Positions 1-46,716 of a stretch of DNA of 64,000 nt are shown here, one piece after another. The position numbers and the translations under genes were made by a program. The stretch is from a virus: the IMG/VR virus record IMGVR_UViG_3300033233_000014, positions 47,630 to 111,629 of that record, one strand, 5' to 3'. Position 1 is the stretch's first letter. Each line of letters begins with the position of its first letter. The notes beneath the pieces were generated by a model that saw only the letters and a list, made by a program, of their open reading frames with translations, searched no databases and was not told where the DNA came from.

Positions 1-1273
1 CGCCGTACTTGGCGAGCTTCTGGGCGTTCGTGAGCACCGTGTCCCGCGGGTTGAGCGTCGCCGTGTGCGGCACGGTGTCGAACGGGATGACCTCGGCCTC
101 GTGGTTCTTCCGCAGGATGGCCGACGCGATGAGCGCCGCCACGTCCACGCACCGCGCCACCGTCGTCGCCCCCACGCCCCGCGCGCCCGTGATCGGCGAG
201 GACATCGAGCCCGACACGTCGACGCAGACGTAGACCTTCCCCTCAAGCGCCGGCACGTTCTCCGTGGCGACCTCGAGCGCATCCTGCAGCGCCTCCGTGA
301 CCGCCTTCGGGATCCGCCCCTCGATGAACTGGCCCTTCGCGTCCCGCACCTGCCCCGTGGTCGCGAGATAGGAGACGAGCAACTGGTACGGGAACACCTT
401 GGCCTTCCGAATCGTCTCCGGGTCGCGGAGCTTCCCCGCGATCTCCGCGGTGAGCCCCTCGACCTCGAAGACGCCCTTGCGGGCGTAGTTGTTGAGGTTG
501 ATCCGGGTCTGGTGGAACCAGCCGCGCCGGGCCACCGCCACCCAATGCTCCCGGGTGAGCGGCAGGCTGGTCAGCATCTGCATCGGCACGTCCGGCGCGT
601 CCTTGCCCGCCGGATCCTTCTTGAACGCCTCGTACTCCCGGATGGCCGCTGGCAGCCGCGGATCGTCGCCCGCGACCTTCCCGATGAGCCAGCCGTAGAG
701 CGCCGTCGCCGCCTCGCCCATCGGCTTCGGCCGGGCCAACTTGATGATGTCCCCGAGCGACGGGTTGGTGCCCACGCTGTCCCGCAGGAGGACGTGGGGC
801 CGCCGGACTGCGAACCAGGCGTGGATGAGCCGCCGGACGACGCCCTTGAGCGCCCGGTGCTTGCCCATCTTGCCGCTTCGCAGGATCTGGACGACGTTGC
901 GGAGCATCTTCCCGTTCGTGACAACGTGCGGCCACGCCCGCTCGAACCACTTCGCGCCCTCCGCCCCCTGGTTGCGGAGCCACGCGAGCAGGACGGCCGG
1001 CATGTCCTTCATGAAGCCGCGCTGCCGGGCGTAGACCGCCACCTTGGCGACGAACTCGGGCGTCACGTCGACGTGCTTGAGCAGGATGAGGACGGTGTCG
1101 AGTTGCGCCTCGCCGCTGGCGTAGAACGCCTCGCCGAGGCAGCCCGTGGCCGCCAACTGGGCGAGCGCGTGCCGCGGGGTGAGCGTGTACGCCAGCCCGC
1201 CGGCCTCGTTGCGATCGGTCGTCTCGGGCGGGGTGGCCCCCCGCCGGGACTGGAACAGGGACTTGTTTGCCAT
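1..1273 (-). CDS. rsr: Ro60/Rsr-like TROVE-domain RNA-binding protein with vWA domain (3' end runs off window)
   Basis: Hand translation from ATG at 1273 (AAGGAGG SD): MANKSLFQS...NEAGGLAY...HALAQLAATGC...FMKDMPAVLLA...KVFPYQLL...YVCVDVSGSM (vWA MIDAS). Absent from the ORF track because it has no stop in the window. Confidence 0.92.
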   Translation of the reverse strand, partial: MANKSLFQSRRGATPPETTDRNEAGGLAYTLTPRHALAQLAATGCLGEAFYASGEAQLDTVLILLKHVDVTPEFVAKVAVYARQRGFMKDMPAVLLAWLRNQGAEGAKWFERAWPHVVTNGKMLRNVVQILRSGKMGKHRALKGVVRRLIHAWFAVRRPHVLLRDSVGTNPSLGDIIKLARPKPMGEAATALYGWLIGKVAGDDPRLPAAIREYEAFKKDPAGKDAPDVPMQMLTSLPLTREHWVAVARRGWFHQTRINLNNYARKGVFEVEGLTAEIAGKLRDPETIRKAKVFPYQLLVSYLATTGQVRDAKGQFIEGRIPKAVTEALQDALEVATENVPALEGKVYVCVDVSGSMSSPITGARGVGATTVARCVDVAALIASAILRKNHEAEVIPFDTVPHTATLNPRDTVLTNAQKLAKYG

Positions 1274-2106: not shown

Positions 2107-2180
2107 TGGAGCGGGCCGCGAGAATCGAACTCGCGTCCTCGGGTTGGAGGCCCGACGCCTTGCCACTAGACGAGGCCCGC
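2107..2180 (-). tRNA. tRNA-Gly(UCC), C33 variant
   Basis: TCGGG-CC TCC AA-CCCGA; GCG acceptor start, U73-CCA. Confidence 0.88.
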
Positions 2181-2240
2181 ATCGTGCGCCGGCCTGCCTC
2201 AGCATGCCAGCGCCTCTCGAGACAGCGAGAGCCTGAAGAG

Positions 2241-2331
2241 CCGCCTCTCCCCCGACTGTTCTGCCGTTAAACTACTCGCGCGTCTACTGCACAGGGGAGG
2301 ATTCGAACCTCCATCTTTCTAAGGGGGACGG
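2241..2331 (-). ncRNA. circularly permuted tRNA-like RNA (YrlA-type effector domain)
   Basis: 5'-3' order: T arm GGAGG-TTCGAAT-CCTCC, loop-closed acceptor-like stem, D arm GTTT-AACGGCA-GAAC; ends pair CCGTC/GGCGG. Confidence 0.65.
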
Positions 2332-2335
2332 GATC

Positions 2336-2410
2336 TGGAGCGGGTAGTGGGTTTCGCACCCACGGCCTCCACCTTGGCAAAGTGGCGCTCTACTACTGAG
2401 CTACACCCGC
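2336..2410 (-). tRNA. tRNA-Gly(GCC)
   Basis: CCACT-TT GCC AA-GGTGG; CCA; T-loop TGCGAAA. Confidence 0.9.
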
Positions 2411-2417
2411 GATCTTC

Positions 2418-2503
2418 TGGCGGAGGGGCGGGGACTCGAACCCCGGACGGCGTGAGCCGCGCTCGCCTTCCAAGCGAGTTCCTCGTCCGGCCGGACCCCC
2501 TCC
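2418..2503 (-). tRNA. tRNA-Ser(GGA)
   Basis: CTCGC-TT GGA AG-GCGAG; long variable arm; G73-CCA; atypical D arm. Confidence 0.85.
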
Positions 2504-2645
2504 ACTCGACCAGGGACCGGAGTTCCGATGAAAGGAAGCCTGCCTCGGCTGGTCGAACCCGAGGCTTGCCCAGGCGTCGCGCCTGATCGGATTGTCGGGC
2601 ACTTCCGGCGCACCCGACGGCGGGCCGAAGGGAATGCCCGGCCGC

Positions 2646-2731
2646 TGGCGGAAGAGGAGGGAATCGAACCCCCACGGGAGTTACCCGGACGGTTTTCGGG
2701 ACCGTTGCGCTAGCCGTTACGCCACTCTTCC
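2646..2731 (-). tRNA. tRNA-Ser(CGA), C33 variant
   Basis: ACGGT-CC CGA AA-ACCGT; long variable arm; G73-CCA. Confidence 0.87.
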
Positions 2732-2735
2732 GAGG

Positions 2736-2811
2736 TGGTGGACCCGGCGGGAGTTGAACCCGCGATCTCCGGAATGCCATTCCGGCGTTCTTCCATCTGA
2801 ACTACGAGCCC
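2736..2811 (-). tRNA. tRNA-Ala(GGC)
   Basis: CCGGA-AT GGC AT-TCCGG; G3:U70; ACCA. Confidence 0.92.
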
Positions 2812-2887
2812 TGGTGGACCTGGCCGGACTCGAACCGGCGATCTCCGCGTTGCGAACGCGGCGCTCTTCCAACTGAGCTACAAGCCC
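2812..2887 (-). tRNA. tRNA-Ala(CGC)
   Basis: CCGCG-TT CGC AA-CGCGG; G3:U70; ACCA. Confidence 0.93.
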
Positions 2888-4115: not shown

Positions 4116-4288
4116 AGAGCGACTCGGGCCGGCTTTGGCAGGCACTTGGGTAGCGCCGCACAGACCGGCGGGGTGAAACCCGGATCAGCGCCAGCAGAGC
4201 CGTACGGACGTGCCGCCGTTGATGCTGGACCACCACTCTACGATGAGGCTTCGGTCTGATGACCGCGCCTTCCCCTTCTCCGCGTCGC

Positions 4289-4365
4289 TGGTAGATCCGA
4301 TAGGACTTGAACCTATGGCCTCCTGCGTGTGAAGCAGGCGCTCTGCGCAACTGAGCTACGGATCT
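4289..4365 (-). tRNA. tRNA-Val(CAC)
   Basis: CCTGC-TT CAC AC-GCAGG; ACCA. Confidence 0.9.
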
Positions 4366-4732: not shown

Positions 4733-4852
4733 ACGAGGCCCCGGACAAGAGAGTCGAGAGGAATGCCTTCCAGAGGTTGCCCTCTCAGGCGAGCCCTTGC
4801 GGGCTTCAAGATTTGAACTTGGTGTACTCCCAACAGCATCCCGATGCCTCGC
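4733..4852 (-). ncRNA. Y RNA with T-arm plus GNRA-hairpin effector domain
   Basis: same stem module (GGGATGCTGTTGGGAGTACA / CTCTCGACTCTCTTGTCCGG); internal CAAG-TTCAAAT-CTTG and two GCAA-capped hairpins. Confidence 0.7.
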
Positions 4853-4930
4853 TGGTCGGGCTAGCAGGATTTGAACCTGCGGTCTCTTGCTCCCGAAGCA
4901 AGCGCGTTGACCAGGCTACGCTACAGCCCG
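4853..4930 (-). tRNA. tRNA-Pro(CGG)
   Basis: CTTGC-TT CGG GA-GCAAG; ACCA. Confidence 0.93.
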
Positions 4931-4933
4931 AAT

Positions 4934-5085
4934 GAAGACGACCGACAAGAGAGCCGAGAGAACCGGGTTGCCCCGGAATCCTGGCGCTCTACCGTTGAGC
5001 TACCGCACGATCTATTCGCGCGAGTGAGGAGTCGAACCTCACGACCTCCAGGGCCATGTACTCCCAGCGGCATCCGGCCGCCTTC
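4934..5085 (-). ncRNA. yrlA: YrlA-type Y RNA (Ro-binding stem plus permuted tRNA-like domain)
   Basis: stem module GCCGGATGCCGCTGGGAG / CTCTCGGCTCTCTTGTCGGTC enclosing T arm GTGAGG TTCGACT CCTCAC, closed acceptor stem and D arm GCTC AACGGTA GAGC; Ro60 gene in the same unit. Confidence 0.85.
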
Positions 5086-5160
5086 TGGTGTTCCGGGCAG
5101 GAGTCGCACCTGCAGCCGTCTCGTTAGGACCGAGTCGCGCTTCTGTTGCGCCACCGGAAC
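5086..5160 (-). tRNA. tRNA-Arg(CCU)
   Basis: CTCG-GT CCT AA-CGAG; ACCA; T-loop TGCGACT. Confidence 0.8.
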
Positions 5161-5165
5161 ATTGC

Positions 5166-5247: not shown

Positions 5248-5862
5248 TTACAGACCCGCGAGCATCGCGGGGGAAAAGACCGACTCAGACTTGACCTTCC
5301 GACGAACCACTCGGAAGCCCGCCTTGCGGGCCGCCCGATCCTTGCGGCAGTCGACTTCCCGCTGCCTCGGATCCTTGTGGTACGACCCGTCGAACTCCAC
5401 GATCACCTTCACGTCGAGAAGCGCGAGGTCGAAGACGAACGCCCCAATCTCGAACTCGAACTCGAACCGCCTTCCGGCCGCAACGAGCGTCTCCCGAAGC
5501 GCCGCGTACTTCCACTCCTCCCGGCGCTTGAGCGTCTCGGCCGGCGAGAAGAGGTTGTGTGCGTTCTCAAGCCCGGAGCGACGCGCAGCCTCGCGCCGCT
5601 CCTCGCTCACGCTCCCCTTGCTGGCACAAGCACGAGAGCAGAACCGCTTAGACCGACGGCGGGTGGACGTGCTGAACACGATTCCGCAGACCGGGCACGT
5701 CATCTCGAATGTCTTCGCCTTCTTCGGCGCGTTGCCCGCGACCGCTGTGCATGAGAGTCCGCAGAAGAACCGGCGGCCAAGCCTTCGGGCACGGTTGACT
5801 TCCCCGATCCGCTTCTCGACTTCCTTCCCACAGCGGGCGCACCGAACAATGGTAGTCGCCAC
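5248..5862 (-). CDS. DUF559/Vsr-like endonuclease with N-terminal zinc-ribbon repeats (putative free-standing homing endonuclease)
   Basis: CxxC...FCxxxC twice, then FDLA...IVEFDGSYH...DCRKD...GFRVVR; GTG start chosen downstream of the tmRNA. Confidence 0.8.
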   Translation of the reverse strand: MATTIVRCARCGKEVEKRIGEVNRARRLGRRFFCGLSCTAVAGNAPKKAKTFEMTCPVCGIVFSTSTRRRSKRFCSRACASKGSVSEERREAARRSGLENAHNLFSPAETLKRREEWKYAALRETLVAAGRRFEFEFEIGAFVFDLALLDVKVIVEFDGSYHKDPRQREVDCRKDRAARKAGFRVVRRKVKSESVFSPAMLAGL

Positions 5863-5914
5863 GCCCCCATCGTAGCCGCGATGTAGGCGTGGCGCAATAC
5901 CCGATGTAGGCGAT

Positions 5915-6287
5915 TGGAGGCGGCGAGATTTGCACTCGCGTCTCAAAGACCTTCGCCCGAAGCCTCTACGCGCGTGTCCCTGCTTCTCGTCTTTCCTCGG
6001 GCGCAGGACAGCCCATCGTCAGGCGTCTCTTGCCAAGCACCCAGTCTTTCCTGGGTGTCAGACCCTGGTGCCTTCCCTGCGCCGGGCCGTGCGCAAGGCG
6101 GGGTTGCTCGAGGTCGGCTAGGCCGCGAGCCGCAGGCCCCGAGCCGCGTGAGCGGCCCGGAAGTCCACGGTGGTCACCTTGAGGTGACTGGCTGATGAAT
6201 TGTGGTCCGCTTGTTGACGGGGCCTGCTGACCAACCCCGGCGCGCATCCCCGGACTCCGATCTCCGATCGAAAACTAGTTCGCCCCC
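5915..6287 (-). ncRNA. ssrA: tmRNA
   Basis: 5' GGGGGCGAA..TTCGA; 3' T arm plus CGCCTCC-A with G3:U70; internal frame ending ...RGLRLAA-TAG (6192-6118); 373 nt. Confidence 0.92.
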
Positions 6288-6291
6288 ATGC

Positions 6292-6367
6292 TGGTACTCC
6301 CGAGGGGATTCGAACCCCACGTTTCCACCGTGAGAGGGTGGCGTCCTGCCGGCTAGACGACGGGAGC
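6292..6367 (-). tRNA. tRNA-Glu(CUC)
   Basis: CCACC-CT CTC AC-GGTGG; CCA. Confidence 0.93.
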
Positions 6368-6466
6368 ATTGCGGCGAGGCGGCGCCGCGCCGGAGAGGGC
6401 CACGAGAGTTGCACCCGCGCGCCAGCAAGCATGGCATGCCTGCTGGCGTCATCTCTGATCCTTCCC

Positions 6467-6502
6467 TGGTGGATCCGGTGGGACTCGAACCCACGCGAAC
6501 CC
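6467..6502 (-). ncRNA. 36-nt tRNA minihelix with alanine identity (candidate)
   Basis: GGGTTCG-C-GTGGG-TTCGAGT-CCCAC-CGGATCC-ACCA: 7-bp acceptor with G3:U70, T arm, A73, CCA. Confidence 0.65.
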
Positions 6503-6508
6503 GTGTTA

Positions 6509-6584
6509 TGGTTGCCCGGGAGGGATTCGCACCCTCAGCCTCGTCCTTAAGAGGGACTTGCTCCGCTAGTTGAGCTACCGAGCA
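6509..6584 (-). tRNA. tRNA-Lys(CUU)
   Basis: GTCC-CT CTT AA-GGAC; ACCA; T-loop TGCGAAT. Confidence 0.87.
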
Positions 6585-6596
6585 TCTGAAAGTCTC

Positions 6597-6672
6597 TGGC
6601 TCCACGGGTAGGGCTCGAACCTACATCATCCTGGGTAACAGCCAGGCGCTCAGCCAGTTGAGCTACCGTGGA
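6597..6672 (-). tRNA. tRNA-Asn(GUU)
   Basis: CCTGG-CT GTT AC-CCAGG; GCCA. Confidence 0.93.
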
Positions 6673-6677
6673 CCGGA

Positions 6678-6752
6678 TGGTCACGCCGAGAGGAGTCGAA
6701 CCTCTTTGGCAGGATCCGTAGTCCTGTGCCTGATCCGATCGGCCACGGCGTG
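6678..6752 (-). tRNA. tRNA-Arg(ACG)
   Basis: CAGGA-CT ACG GA-TCCTG; ACCA. Confidence 0.92.
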
Positions 6753-6798
6753 AATGCAGACGCGGTGTTCGCGCACCGCGCCCACTCGAACGTCTCGT

Positions 6799-6814
6799 CG
6801 AACTGTCAGAGAAC
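6799..6814 (-). promoter_or_regulatory. boxA-like antitermination element
   Basis: GTTCTCTGACAGTTCG after a hairpin, just downstream of a promoter; near-copy at 7356-7371. Confidence 0.55.
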
Positions 6815-6859
6815 CTCGGTCAAGTCGCGCCTCGGCGCTCGACCACGCACGAAACCTGG

Positions 6860-6888
6860 ATTCTACCACATCAGCGAATCTTTGTCAA
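6860..6888 (-). promoter_or_regulatory. sigma70-type promoter of the tRNA array
   Basis: TTGACA-17 bp-TAGAAT with extended -10 TG. Confidence 0.85.
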
Positions 6889-6893
6889 GACGC

Positions 6894-6981
6894 TGGTGGG
6901 CCGTGGTGGAGTTGAACCACTTGCTCGCCGCTCCCCATATCAGAGCGACCGCTTTACAGGCGGCCGGGGAGAACACGTCCC
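6894..6981 (-). tRNA. tRNA-Tyr(GUA) lacking a canonical D arm
   Basis: GCCGC-CT GTA AA-GCGGT; T arm and ACCA normal; only about 10 nt between acceptor and anticodon stems; long variable region. Confidence 0.75.
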
Positions 6982-7054
6982 GGTGGGCCCGGAGGGAGTC
7001 GGACCCTCGCCTTCCGGTTAAAAGCCGGCTGCTCGGCCGCTGAGCTACGGACCC
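6982..7054 (-). tRNA. tRNA-Lys(UUU)
   Basis: CCGG-CT TTT AA-CCGG; ends ACC abutting tRNA-Tyr. Confidence 0.87.
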
Positions 7055-7124
7055 GCGTGGACTACGCGGCCCGTTTCGCCAGCGCGGCGCCGGCCCCGGT
7101 ATAGCCCACCGCCGCGGCGCGCCC

Positions 7125-7199
7125 TGGTTGCCGCGGCTGGGGTCGAACCAGCAGCCCCCCGCATGTCAAACGGGTGCTCTTCCGCTGAGCTACGCGACA
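7125..7199 (-). tRNA. tRNA-Val(GAC)
   Basis: CCCGT-TT GAC AT-GCGGG; ACCA. Confidence 0.9.
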
Positions 7200-7207
7200 C
7201 CCGATGC

Positions 7208-7282
7208 TGGTAGCGGGGGCGAGGATCGAACTCGCGAACTCCAGCTTATGAGGCTGGCATGATACCGCTTCACCACCCCGCG
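7208..7282 (-). tRNA. tRNA-Met(CAU), initiator-like acceptor
   Basis: CCAGC-CT CAT AA-GCTGG; CGCGGGG acceptor with C1/U72 mismatch. Confidence 0.88.
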
Positions 7283-7355
7283 ATAGGGACGTGCTCACGG
7301 CGCCGTGCAGGGGGTCGCCTTGCACGGGCGCCGTGGTCACGCCCACGGATCGACA

Positions 7356-7371
7356 CGAACTGTCAAGGAAC
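7356..7371 (-). promoter_or_regulatory. boxA-like antitermination element
   Basis: GTTCCTTGACAGTTCG after hairpin CGAGAG/CTCTCG, upstream of the first tRNA. Confidence 0.55.
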
Positions 7372-7491
7372 GCCGAGAGACTACCCGGGCTCTCGTCGCC
7401 AGGTTGCTGCGCGGAATCTTCGTCTGGCATCGCAGGGAGTGTAACACCTGCGCCGGCCGGAAGGTTCACGAAACTGGACGAAAGTGCCCGC

Positions 7492-7965
7492 TCACCCACA
7501 CCGGCTGTTCCGCGACTCCCCCAGCATCTCGAGCGCCAGATCCACCTGGGCCTCCGACCAGCGCCCCTCGCGTTCCCAGTTATCAAGCATGTTCCAAGCG
7601 ATCTGGCGGCGCCGGCCCCGCAGCCCCATCGCGGCGACCGTCAGGAGTTCGTAGATCATCACGGTGAAGTCGTCCACGAGCATGCGCTCGACGAGCACGC
7701 CGTCCGTGATCCGCCTCCGGAGTTGGATCTCGACCATCGGCGGCAGCACGAAGCCCCGCGCGATGTGCTCCCGGCAGAGGCGCACGAAGCCATCATCGTC
7801 GCCGATCGGCTCGCCCTGGAGCACCAGCGCACACTCGAGGCCCTGCAGGTGCTCCAGCAGCCCCGCGTGGCGCTCCCGCGCTTGGGCCACCCGCCCTTCG
7901 ACGCGCGCCTCGGCGTGGGCTTCGCGCCGGCGCCGCCGCATCCGAGGATCGGTGCGCGGATCCAT
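7492..7965 (-). CDS. hypothetical protein
   Basis: ORF with start overlapping the upstream stop; MDPRTDP... Confidence 0.65.
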   Translation of the reverse strand: MDPRTDPRMRRRRREAHAEARVEGRVAQARERHAGLLEHLQGLECALVLQGEPIGDDDGFVRLCREHIARGFVLPPMVEIQLRRRITDGVLVERMLVDDFTVMIYELLTVAAMGLRGRRRQIAWNMLDNWEREGRWSEAQVDLALEMLGESRNSRCG

Positions 7966-46485: not shown

Positions 46486-46716
46486 TCATGTTCTCTTCGC
46501 GCGCCGATCTGCGAGTTTCTTCTTGGCGAGAGCGATGCGCTGGCATCTCGCGCAGGAGATCTTTCCTGCTTCCACAAGCAATCGGTGGGTCGCGTTGTGT
46601 GGGTCAAGGAGCCAGAAAAACGTCCTCTCGAACGCCGTAAGTTTGGCGCCCTTCCTCGCCGGCCTGACCGTCGTTCCCCAGTCCCTGACGATCTCCTCAC
46701 GCCGCGCCTTCGGCAT
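46486..46716 (-). CDS. basic hypothetical protein
   Basis: ORF. Confidence 0.45.
   Translation of the reverse strand: MPKARREEIVRDWGTTVRPARKGAKLTAFERTFFWLLDPHNATHRLLVEAGKISCARCQRIALAKKKLADRRAKRT

Follow-up and report, generated by a model that had tools for sequence, protein, structure and literature searches.

We report that the minus strand of this phage DNA encodes, within a dense array of tRNA genes, a free-standing 36-nt hairpin built like the alanine minihelices made in the laboratory, and that this minihelix is probably the internally deleted remnant of a tRNA-Lys(CUU) gene that has no selected role. Comparison with relatives establishes its homology to tRNA-Lys, the conserved gene order around it, the end points of the deletion and the derived state of G3, the base that completes its alanine-type acceptor end.

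A 36-nt hairpin within a phage tRNA array

The window, by which we mean the whole 64,000-nt stretch that was analysed, forms the right-hand end of an IMG/VR virus record of 111.6 kb with a G+C content of 67.8%. Judged by the tail sheath, baseplate, portal and terminase proteins encoded in the record, the source is a tailed phage with a contractile tail, and the sequencing runs that carry the minihelix stretch are labelled sediment metagenomes, with no RNA run among those listed. The minus strand carries 42 tRNA genes by ARAGORN, of which one is doubtful (anticodon CGGG, 46494-46578). Nearly all tRNAs of the array encode their CCA and the spacing between units is mostly 0-6 nt, with six tRNA pairs abutting without any spacer. 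The features in and around the minihelix, from upstream to downstream on the minus strand, are listed below; L388 is a related contig described in the next section.

6860-6888, minus strand: promoter-like site, sigma-70-like (TTGACA, 17 nt, TG-TAGAAT; 11/12), a consensus match only
6597-6672, minus strand: tRNA-Asn(GUU), the upstream synteny anchor (ARAGORN, Rfam; 73/76 identical to L388:2196-2271)
6509-6584, minus strand: tRNA-Lys(CUU) "B", the putative replacement gene (ARAGORN; Rfam tRNA, 54 bits; cloverleaf fold)
6503-6508, minus strand: 6-nt spacer UAACAC, from the CCA of tRNA-Lys(CUU)B to G1 of the minihelix (sequence)
6496-6502, minus strand: 5' acceptor strand of the minihelix (sequence and fold)
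6495, minus strand: linker C48 of the minihelix (sequence and fold)
6478-6494, minus strand: T stem and loop of the minihelix (sequence and fold)
6471-6477, minus strand: 3' acceptor strand of the minihelix (sequence and fold)
6467-6470, minus strand: ACCA end of the minihelix (sequence and fold)
6391-6466, minus strand: 76-nt tRNA-like element, its first base directly after the minihelix CCA (folds, z -2.4)
6292-6367, minus strand: tRNA-Glu(CUC), the downstream synteny anchor (ARAGORN, Rfam; homolog L388:2036-2112)
5914-6287, minus strand: tmRNA (ssrA), full model, 4 nt past tRNA-Glu(CUC) (Rfam RF00023, 66.1 bits; gathering score 47)

The minihelix is the minus strand of window 6467-6502 (36 nt; reverse complement, GGGTTCGCGTGGGTTCGAGTCCCACCGGATCCACCA) and reads, as RNA, GGGUUCG-C-GUGGG-UUCGAGU-CCCAC-CGGAUCC-ACCA. 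A first-pass annotation, made from the letters of the window, had described a 36-nt hairpin with a 7-bp acceptor-type stem stacked on a T arm, and this was borne out by RNAfold, which returned (((((((.(((((.......)))))))))))).... for the 36-mer at -19.1 kcal/mol, a structure that accounts for 96% of the ensemble. The z-score against shuffles is -2.6, with 3 of 200 shuffles equally stable, and the identical structure is found when a 141-nt context is folded. The acceptor-type pairs are G1:C72, G2:C71, G3:U70, U4:A69, U5:G68, C6:G67 and G7:C66, followed by A73 and CCA, and the overall layout is a 7-bp stem, one unpaired C, a 5-bp stem, a canonical 7-nt T loop and a free ACCA. The D arm and anticodon arm are absent, and the minihelix is called neither by ARAGORN nor by the Rfam tRNA model. 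Its AlaRS identity elements, given earlier as G1:C72, G2:C71, G3:U70 and A73, are all present in both sequence and fold. The location assigned to it also holds, as ARAGORN places a tRNA-Lys(CUU) gene at 6509-6584, with the minihelix 6 nt past its CCA, and the distance to the tmRNA, put at about 180 nt, is 179 nt from the 3' end of the minihelix to the 5' end of the tmRNA.

The pattern of GGG, T loop and CCACCA at the spacing of the minihelix occurs once in the window, against 0.00 expected from shuffles, and the minihelix is therefore tRNA-derived and not a chance hairpin. Two Logan contigs from separate studies span it without differences, one of 532 nt in run X1 (depth 266) and one of 151 nt in run X2, which rules out an assembly artefact. 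In run X1 its genotype is the dominant variant, at a depth of ~286 compared with 52-72 for relatives.

A full-length tRNA-Lys(CUU) at the corresponding site in relatives

Scanning metagenomes with the 3' part of the hairpin recovered L388, a 2,789-nt contig that is a close relative of the array. Block identities between L388 and the window range from 77 to 100%, with 100% over 4239-4365 and 98.7% over 4850-5161, and the gene order Lys(UUU)-Asn-Lys(CUU)-Glu(CUC)-tmRNA-...-Arg-Arg-Pro-Pro-Pro-Val is common to both. In L388, the site between tRNA-Asn and tRNA-Glu(CUC) is occupied by one full-length tRNA-Lys(CUU) (2116-2191, minus strand), a perfect cloverleaf that scores 65.3 bits. Without its nt 8-47, this gene matches the minihelix at 34 of 36 positions, and the linker C of the minihelix is its C48. 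The two differences, from L388 to the minihelix, are A3 to G, which creates G3:U70, and C59 to G in the T loop. With position 3 written as R, the deletion junction reads GGRTTCG-C-GTGGGTTC.

Further relatives agree with this picture. Record 17 of run X3, a 444-nt Logan contig known from its read layout, has a tRNA-Asn with 1 difference, then 51 unaligned letters, and then a homolog of the window from 6495 down to 6289. The alignment breaks exactly at the linker C, and 51 is the sum of the 4-nt spacer of L388 and 47 nt of a full-length tRNA, a layout that fits a full-length tRNA-Lys at the minihelix site. A full-length tRNA-Lys(CUU) with A3 is also present in the more distant array L387, where its 3' part agrees with the minihelix at 28 of 29 positions. 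The 3' 29 nt of the minihelix recur without a difference in ordinary tRNA-Lys genes of four unrelated contigs (L408, L340, L321 and L317). For the T arm plus 3' strand (28 nt), all seven exact matches listed are tRNA-Lys genes, four of which also match the linker C (29 nt). The truncated form is absent from the relatives read, and the upstream tRNA-Asn(GUU) has 1-7 differences in contigs of runs X1, X2, X3 and X7.

Before the L388 sequence was available, ancestry from tRNA-Ala had been suggested by the phage's own tRNA-Ala(GGC), which is the closest full tRNA within the phage (27/33 identity, with two compensatory pair differences), and the tRNA-Ala(GGC) of L351 is closer still, at 30/33. This idea was dropped on the L388 sequence: its tRNA-Lys(CUU) is closer than either, at 31/33 without and 34/36 with CCA, and is syntenic, and the seven exact matches just described are all to tRNA-Lys. 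The tRNA-like domain of tmRNA was another candidate source, as many tmRNA 3' ends fit a relaxed version of the 3' pattern, but the sole match to the tmRNA model RF00023 is the gene at 5914-6287, with nothing at 6368-6508 even at E<=1. We rejected a tmRNA tRNA-like domain or a two-piece tmRNA at the minihelix on this ground, and consider descent from a tRNA-Ala paralog or from the tmRNA domain to be very improbable.

It had also been anticipated that homologs might expose the hairpin as a leftover tRNA 3' half, an att-like scar. A leftover tRNA it is, but the description as a 3' half fails, since the hairpin still has the original 5' acceptor strand, now next to C48. A duplicated host tRNA 3' half left by integration would account for a 3' 29 nt identical to bacterial-type tRNA-Lys 3' ends; the locus, however, lies within the tRNA array of a contractile-tail phage, and the orthologous site in relatives is a whole tRNA gene rather than an attachment site. 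Such an origin seems to us close to excluded.

By comparison with relatives, the minihelix originated by deletion of nt 8-47 from a tRNA-Lys(CUU) gene, and it has no disruptive substitutions, both of its differences from L388 keeping the structure. The intact structure fits a recent deletion or continued constraint alike; because other blocks are 98.7-100% identical to L388, a recent deletion accounts for it equally well. The tRNA-Lys(CUU)B gene upstream has an acceptor stem (U1:A72) and T arm (UGCGAAU loop) unrelated to those of the minihelix, and is missing from L388 and, judged by read layout, from X3 record 17. The spacer UAACAC is likewise without counterpart in L388, in which the spacer before the Lys gene is CGCU. 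With this different tRNA-Lys(CUU) only 6 nt upstream, the old copy, LysA, would have been redundant and free to decay.

We propose the following history. An ancestral array Asn-Lys(CUU)A-Glu(CUC) would have acquired the tRNA-like element behind LysA, giving the state seen in X3, and Lys(CUU)B would then have arrived in front of LysA in this phage lineage. LysA would have lost nt 8-47, and with them its D and anticodon arms plus most of its variable loop, so that its 5' acceptor strand came to be followed by C48 and then by the T arm, the 3' acceptor strand, A73 and CCA, all left intact. At some point A3 would have changed to G, turning the ancestral A3:U70 into G3:U70. The relative order of LysB arrival, the nt 8-47 deletion and the A3 to G change is one that we infer, and is not fixed by the comparison. 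As G1:C72, G2:C71 and A73 were inherited from the acceptor end of tRNA-Lys, the alanine identity set required only a single transition.

Neighboring elements, transcription and processing

In the 76-nt tRNA-like element that abuts the minihelix, the acceptor-like stem is imperfect and includes a G3.U pair, a 13-bp hairpin stands where the anticodon arm would be expected, and the T arm is 6 bp long with the loop UGCAACU; the element does not encode a CCA. It has no Rfam match, and no homolog was found in any of the loci compared. It is missing from L388, where 3 nt part Lys and Glu, and is retained in X3 record 17 by length and alignment in the read layout. Further downstream, tRNA-Glu and tmRNA together are 89% identical to L388:1660-2112, and the L388 tmRNA match scores 51 bits.

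Several other elements of the array are also non-standard. The tmRNA 3' end (5914-5920, minus strand) is CGCCUCC plus discriminator A, followed by AUC, such that CCA is not encoded, unlike in almost all array tRNAs. An ORF for a DUF559 protein (Vsr-like endonuclease; 5248-5946, minus strand) lies between tmRNA and tRNA-Arg(CCG), with its start overlapping the tmRNA 3' end; it is ~86% identical in the X3 relative, and at this place L388 has an unrelated insert of 726 nt, compared with 670 nt here. This ORF looks like a mobile endonuclease cassette. Directly past the last tRNA is a Ro60/TROVE ortholog of 570 aa (window 1-1273, minus strand, continuing to genome 47190; L120:7190-8902), the best homologs of which are metagenomic proteins at 55-66% identity and bacterial ones at ~52%, for example from Pyrinomonadaceae. 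A weak YrlA-like match (31 bits, below the gathering score) is located between two tRNAs at 4954-5064. The 97-nt tRNA-Tyr called by ARAGORN overlaps tRNA-Lys(UUU) (window 6894-7054, minus strand), and even at E<=1 the segment 6894-6981 has no match to the Rfam tRNA model; this tRNA-Tyr gene seems non-canonical. The tRNA-Lys(UUU) itself ends in ACC followed by G, an incomplete CCA. A permuted "tmRNA*" called by ARAGORN (2108-2828, minus strand) is a false positive: it runs across six tRNA genes and is not supported by Rfam.

The promoter-like site is ~360 nt upstream of the minihelix, and was the one site found in a consensus scan for which 0.1 were expected; no terminator-like site was found in window 5800-7500. 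Together, these observations make it likely that Arg(ACG)-Asn-Lys(CUU)B-minihelix-tRNA-like element-Glu(CUC)-tmRNA form a transcription unit. We also note that the promoter-like site sits inside the array, in a 141-nt gap between tRNA-Tyr and tRNA-Arg(ACG), so the array may comprise more than one transcription unit.

The minihelix would accordingly be co-transcribed with its neighbors. RNase P accepts minihelices, which are among its classical substrates, and its excision of the 36-nt RNA is plausible: it would probably cut at G1 of the minihelix and again where the next tRNA-like element begins, and the two cuts would leave a 36-nt RNA ending in CCA, as at the six abutting tRNA pairs. The remnant is probably still transcribed and excised.

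Cleavage by RNase P could also be the reason for retention, if the hairpin were a processing element at which the cut clears the trailer 3' of tRNA-Lys(CUU)B and which sets that tRNA apart from the poorly tRNA-like element downstream. The tight array, in which most units are 0-6 nt apart, is compatible with such a role. However, L388 has no such element and gets by with spacers of 3-4 nt, an RNase P cut further down, at the tRNA-like element or tRNA-Glu, would do the same job, and conservation offers no evidence for it. We regard a processing function as improbable.

Searches for the same architecture

The first-pass annotation had suggested searching tRNA arrays for the same 7+5 bp architecture with covariation, and the scans listed here yielded no second case. 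For exact and relaxed patterns in IMG/VR, the matches listed were all 3' portions of ordinary tRNAs or tmRNAs, with 7/7 plus 5/5 pairing in none of the 115 and 119 listed. A hairpin scanner looking for a 7-bp and a 5-bp stem, joined by a linker of 0-2 nt and closed by a T-loop-like loop, found no other perfect 7+5 bp hairpin with an NCCA end in ~3.3 Mb of tRNA-rich viral and metagenomic loci, which took in the arrays of the capsid relatives G004, G005 and G009. The deletion-junction pattern was not found among the matches listed from 185,579 bacterial and archaeal genomes, nor was a second truncated instance found among those listed from the metagenome scan, and a 31-mer of the tRNA-Asn had no match in genome contigs. 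Neither the matches listed from IMG/VR, metagenomes and genomes nor the 3.3 Mb of loci contained a truncated architecture conserved with covariation across diverged relatives. These pattern scans indicate that the architecture is rare, not that it is absent elsewhere.

Searches for the surrounding array gave similar results. Ro60-based searching for syntenic arrays returned 18 viral loci, at most 48% identical, with no comparable array; the DUF559 protein and a tRNA-Asn 25-mer identified no close relative among the matches listed in IMG/VR; and blastn against GenBank phages gave only short tRNA-level matches.

Potential for alanine charging

According to a review of alanylation (PMC9976931), G3.U70 governs the reaction and A3-U70 abolishes it, and the set for bacterial AlaRS is listed there as A73, G2:C71 and G4:C69. 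The minihelix has A73 and G2:C71, whereas its 4:69 pair is U:A and not G:C. Its acceptor stem (GGGUUCG/CGGAUCC) plus A73 is identical to that of real tRNA-Ala genes, namely Ala(GGC) in L351 and Ala(UGC) in L371, and because the same acceptor stem and A73 are in use in tRNA-Ala genes of other arrays, charging by a bacterial AlaRS is plausible if the RNA is released. Under the history proposed above, AlaRS could then charge the 36-nt RNA as a by-product rather than a selected function. That the RNA is both made and alanylated, with no selected role at all, we hold as a real but tentative possibility.

The hairpin had originally been taken for a purpose-built natural minihelix that could serve as a decoy, an alanine donor or a rescue RNA. 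This is unsupported, given that relatives hold a full-length tRNA-Lys(CUU) and that G3:U70 arose by one transition. A milder version is that the remnant was exapted, with the A3 to G change selected after the deletion and the product acting as a decoy for acceptor-end toxins, as a sponge for AlaRS or EF-Tu, or as an alanine donor. Many of the features described above are consistent with this: the AlaRS determinants G1:C72, G2:C71, G3:U70 and A73 form a full set, which includes the pair that governs alanylation and is disabled by A3-U70 (PMC9976931); the acceptor stem is that of the L351 Ala-GGC and L371 Ala-UGC genes; there is no decay, as stems are perfect, the T loop is canonical, CCA is kept and both differences from L388 preserve structure; and the deletion is unusually clean, in that the arms it took out are precisely the two absent from a minihelix. 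The next tRNA-like unit follows at a 0-nt junction like that of the six real tRNA pairs, there is a strong promoter-like site upstream, the neighborhood is rich in tRNA mimics and has a Ro60 gene and a tmRNA, and the genotype dominates in run X1. In addition, the only stem change makes the main AlaRS determinant, for which we roughly estimate a ~3% chance with two random substitutions, a figure whose weight is inflated because the case was chosen for its G3:U70. On the other hand, there is one genotype only among the matches listed and the closest relatives carry full-length tRNA-Lys, no Fem-type transferase or other partner protein was identified, and all determinants besides G3 are inherited from tRNA-Lys. 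Exaptation of this kind is therefore unlikely in our judgement, and slightly less likely still is its more detailed form, in which two RNase P cuts would yield a stable 36-nt RNA that is charged with alanine via the derived G3:U70 and is useful to the phage, for example as a toxin decoy or an AlaRS/EF-Tu sponge.

Discussion

By descent, as judged from sequence, the minihelix belongs with the partial, non-canonical tRNA genes (fragments and pseudogenes) of prokaryotic and phage genomes, as outlined by van der Gulik et al. (2023, RNA Biol; PMC9897764). As in the cases sketched there, it is a non-decoding leftover, here with a full-length ortholog in relatives and a redundant gene of the same anticodon nearby. 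In the broad terms of that account such genes are usually terminal fragments, whereas the minihelix is an internal deletion, in which both acceptor strands and the T arm are kept as a perfect hairpin.

In form, its nearest counterpart is the synthetic minihelix-Ala (Francklyn and Schimmel, 1989, Nature 337:478, as summarized in PMC9976931), with which, on the features summarized there, it shares an acceptor stem stacked on a T arm, G3:U70, A73, G2:C71, G1:C72 and a 3' CCA, at a length of 36 compared with 35 nt. The phage hairpin is instead genome-encoded, has an extra bulged C48 between the helices, and has U4:A69 and U5:G68 where E. coli has G4:C69 and G5:C68. It also differs in descending from tRNA-Lys, and its alanine charging is predicted only.

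The tRNA-like domain of tmRNA (RF00023) also combines an alanine-type acceptor stem with G3:U70 and a T arm, and has no anticodon, and the true tmRNA of this phage is only 179 nt away. The minihelix, however, is without a D-loop analogue, an mRNA-like part, pseudoknots or an Rfam match, and both its sequence and its synteny lead to tRNA-Lys. A further type of tRNA mimic is relevant here: Chen and colleagues are said to have described, in 2014, YrlA-type bacterial Y RNAs with a tRNA-like module. The likeness to these lies in tRNA mimicry beside a Ro60 gene, as the phage has both a Ro60 ortholog and, elsewhere in the array, a weak YrlA-like match; but no Ro-binding stem surrounds the minihelix, its fold is not of the permuted tRNA-like type, and its position has no Rfam match.

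Arrays turn over fast in this phage group: the tRNA set differs in G001, a relative whose capsid protein is 85% identical. Five further relatives with a capsid-like protein 80% identical (G002, G006, G007, G008 and G010; L132, L133, L146, L134 and L150, respectively) have 0-1 tRNA gene, and the contigs of some of these extend 25-38 kb upstream of the capsid gene, which is the array position here. By these gene contents, the whole tRNA array is an accessory module in the phage group. Identity to L388 is mosaic, with the blocks of 100% (4239-4365) and 98.7% (4850-5161) accompanied by 77% for tRNA-Arg(CCG) and 89% for tRNA-Glu plus tmRNA. The position of tRNA-Arg(ACG) differs between L388 and the window, and L388-type contigs are present in the same runs, X1 and X2. 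Mosaic identity and the displaced tRNA-Arg(ACG) suggest frequent recombination among co-occurring phages.

Read as a remnant, the minihelix would be an ordinary product of the fast turnover of phage tRNA arrays, in which a gene is replaced and the old copy then decays. It also carries a caution, that most of a neat set of "identity elements" on a hairpin can have come down from another tRNA. In a full-length tRNA-Lys, the A3 to G change would be expected to put alanine at lysine codons; it is therefore possible that the deletion got rid of a tRNA made harmful by mischarging, or that the mutation was harmless only once the deletion had occurred. In either case, one deletion and one transition would have turned a lysine tRNA gene into a laboratory-like alanine minihelix, in an array that also holds a tmRNA, Ro60 and tRNA mimics. 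Should the RNA turn out to be produced and alanylated during infection, it would be the first natural Ala-minihelix documented for a virus.
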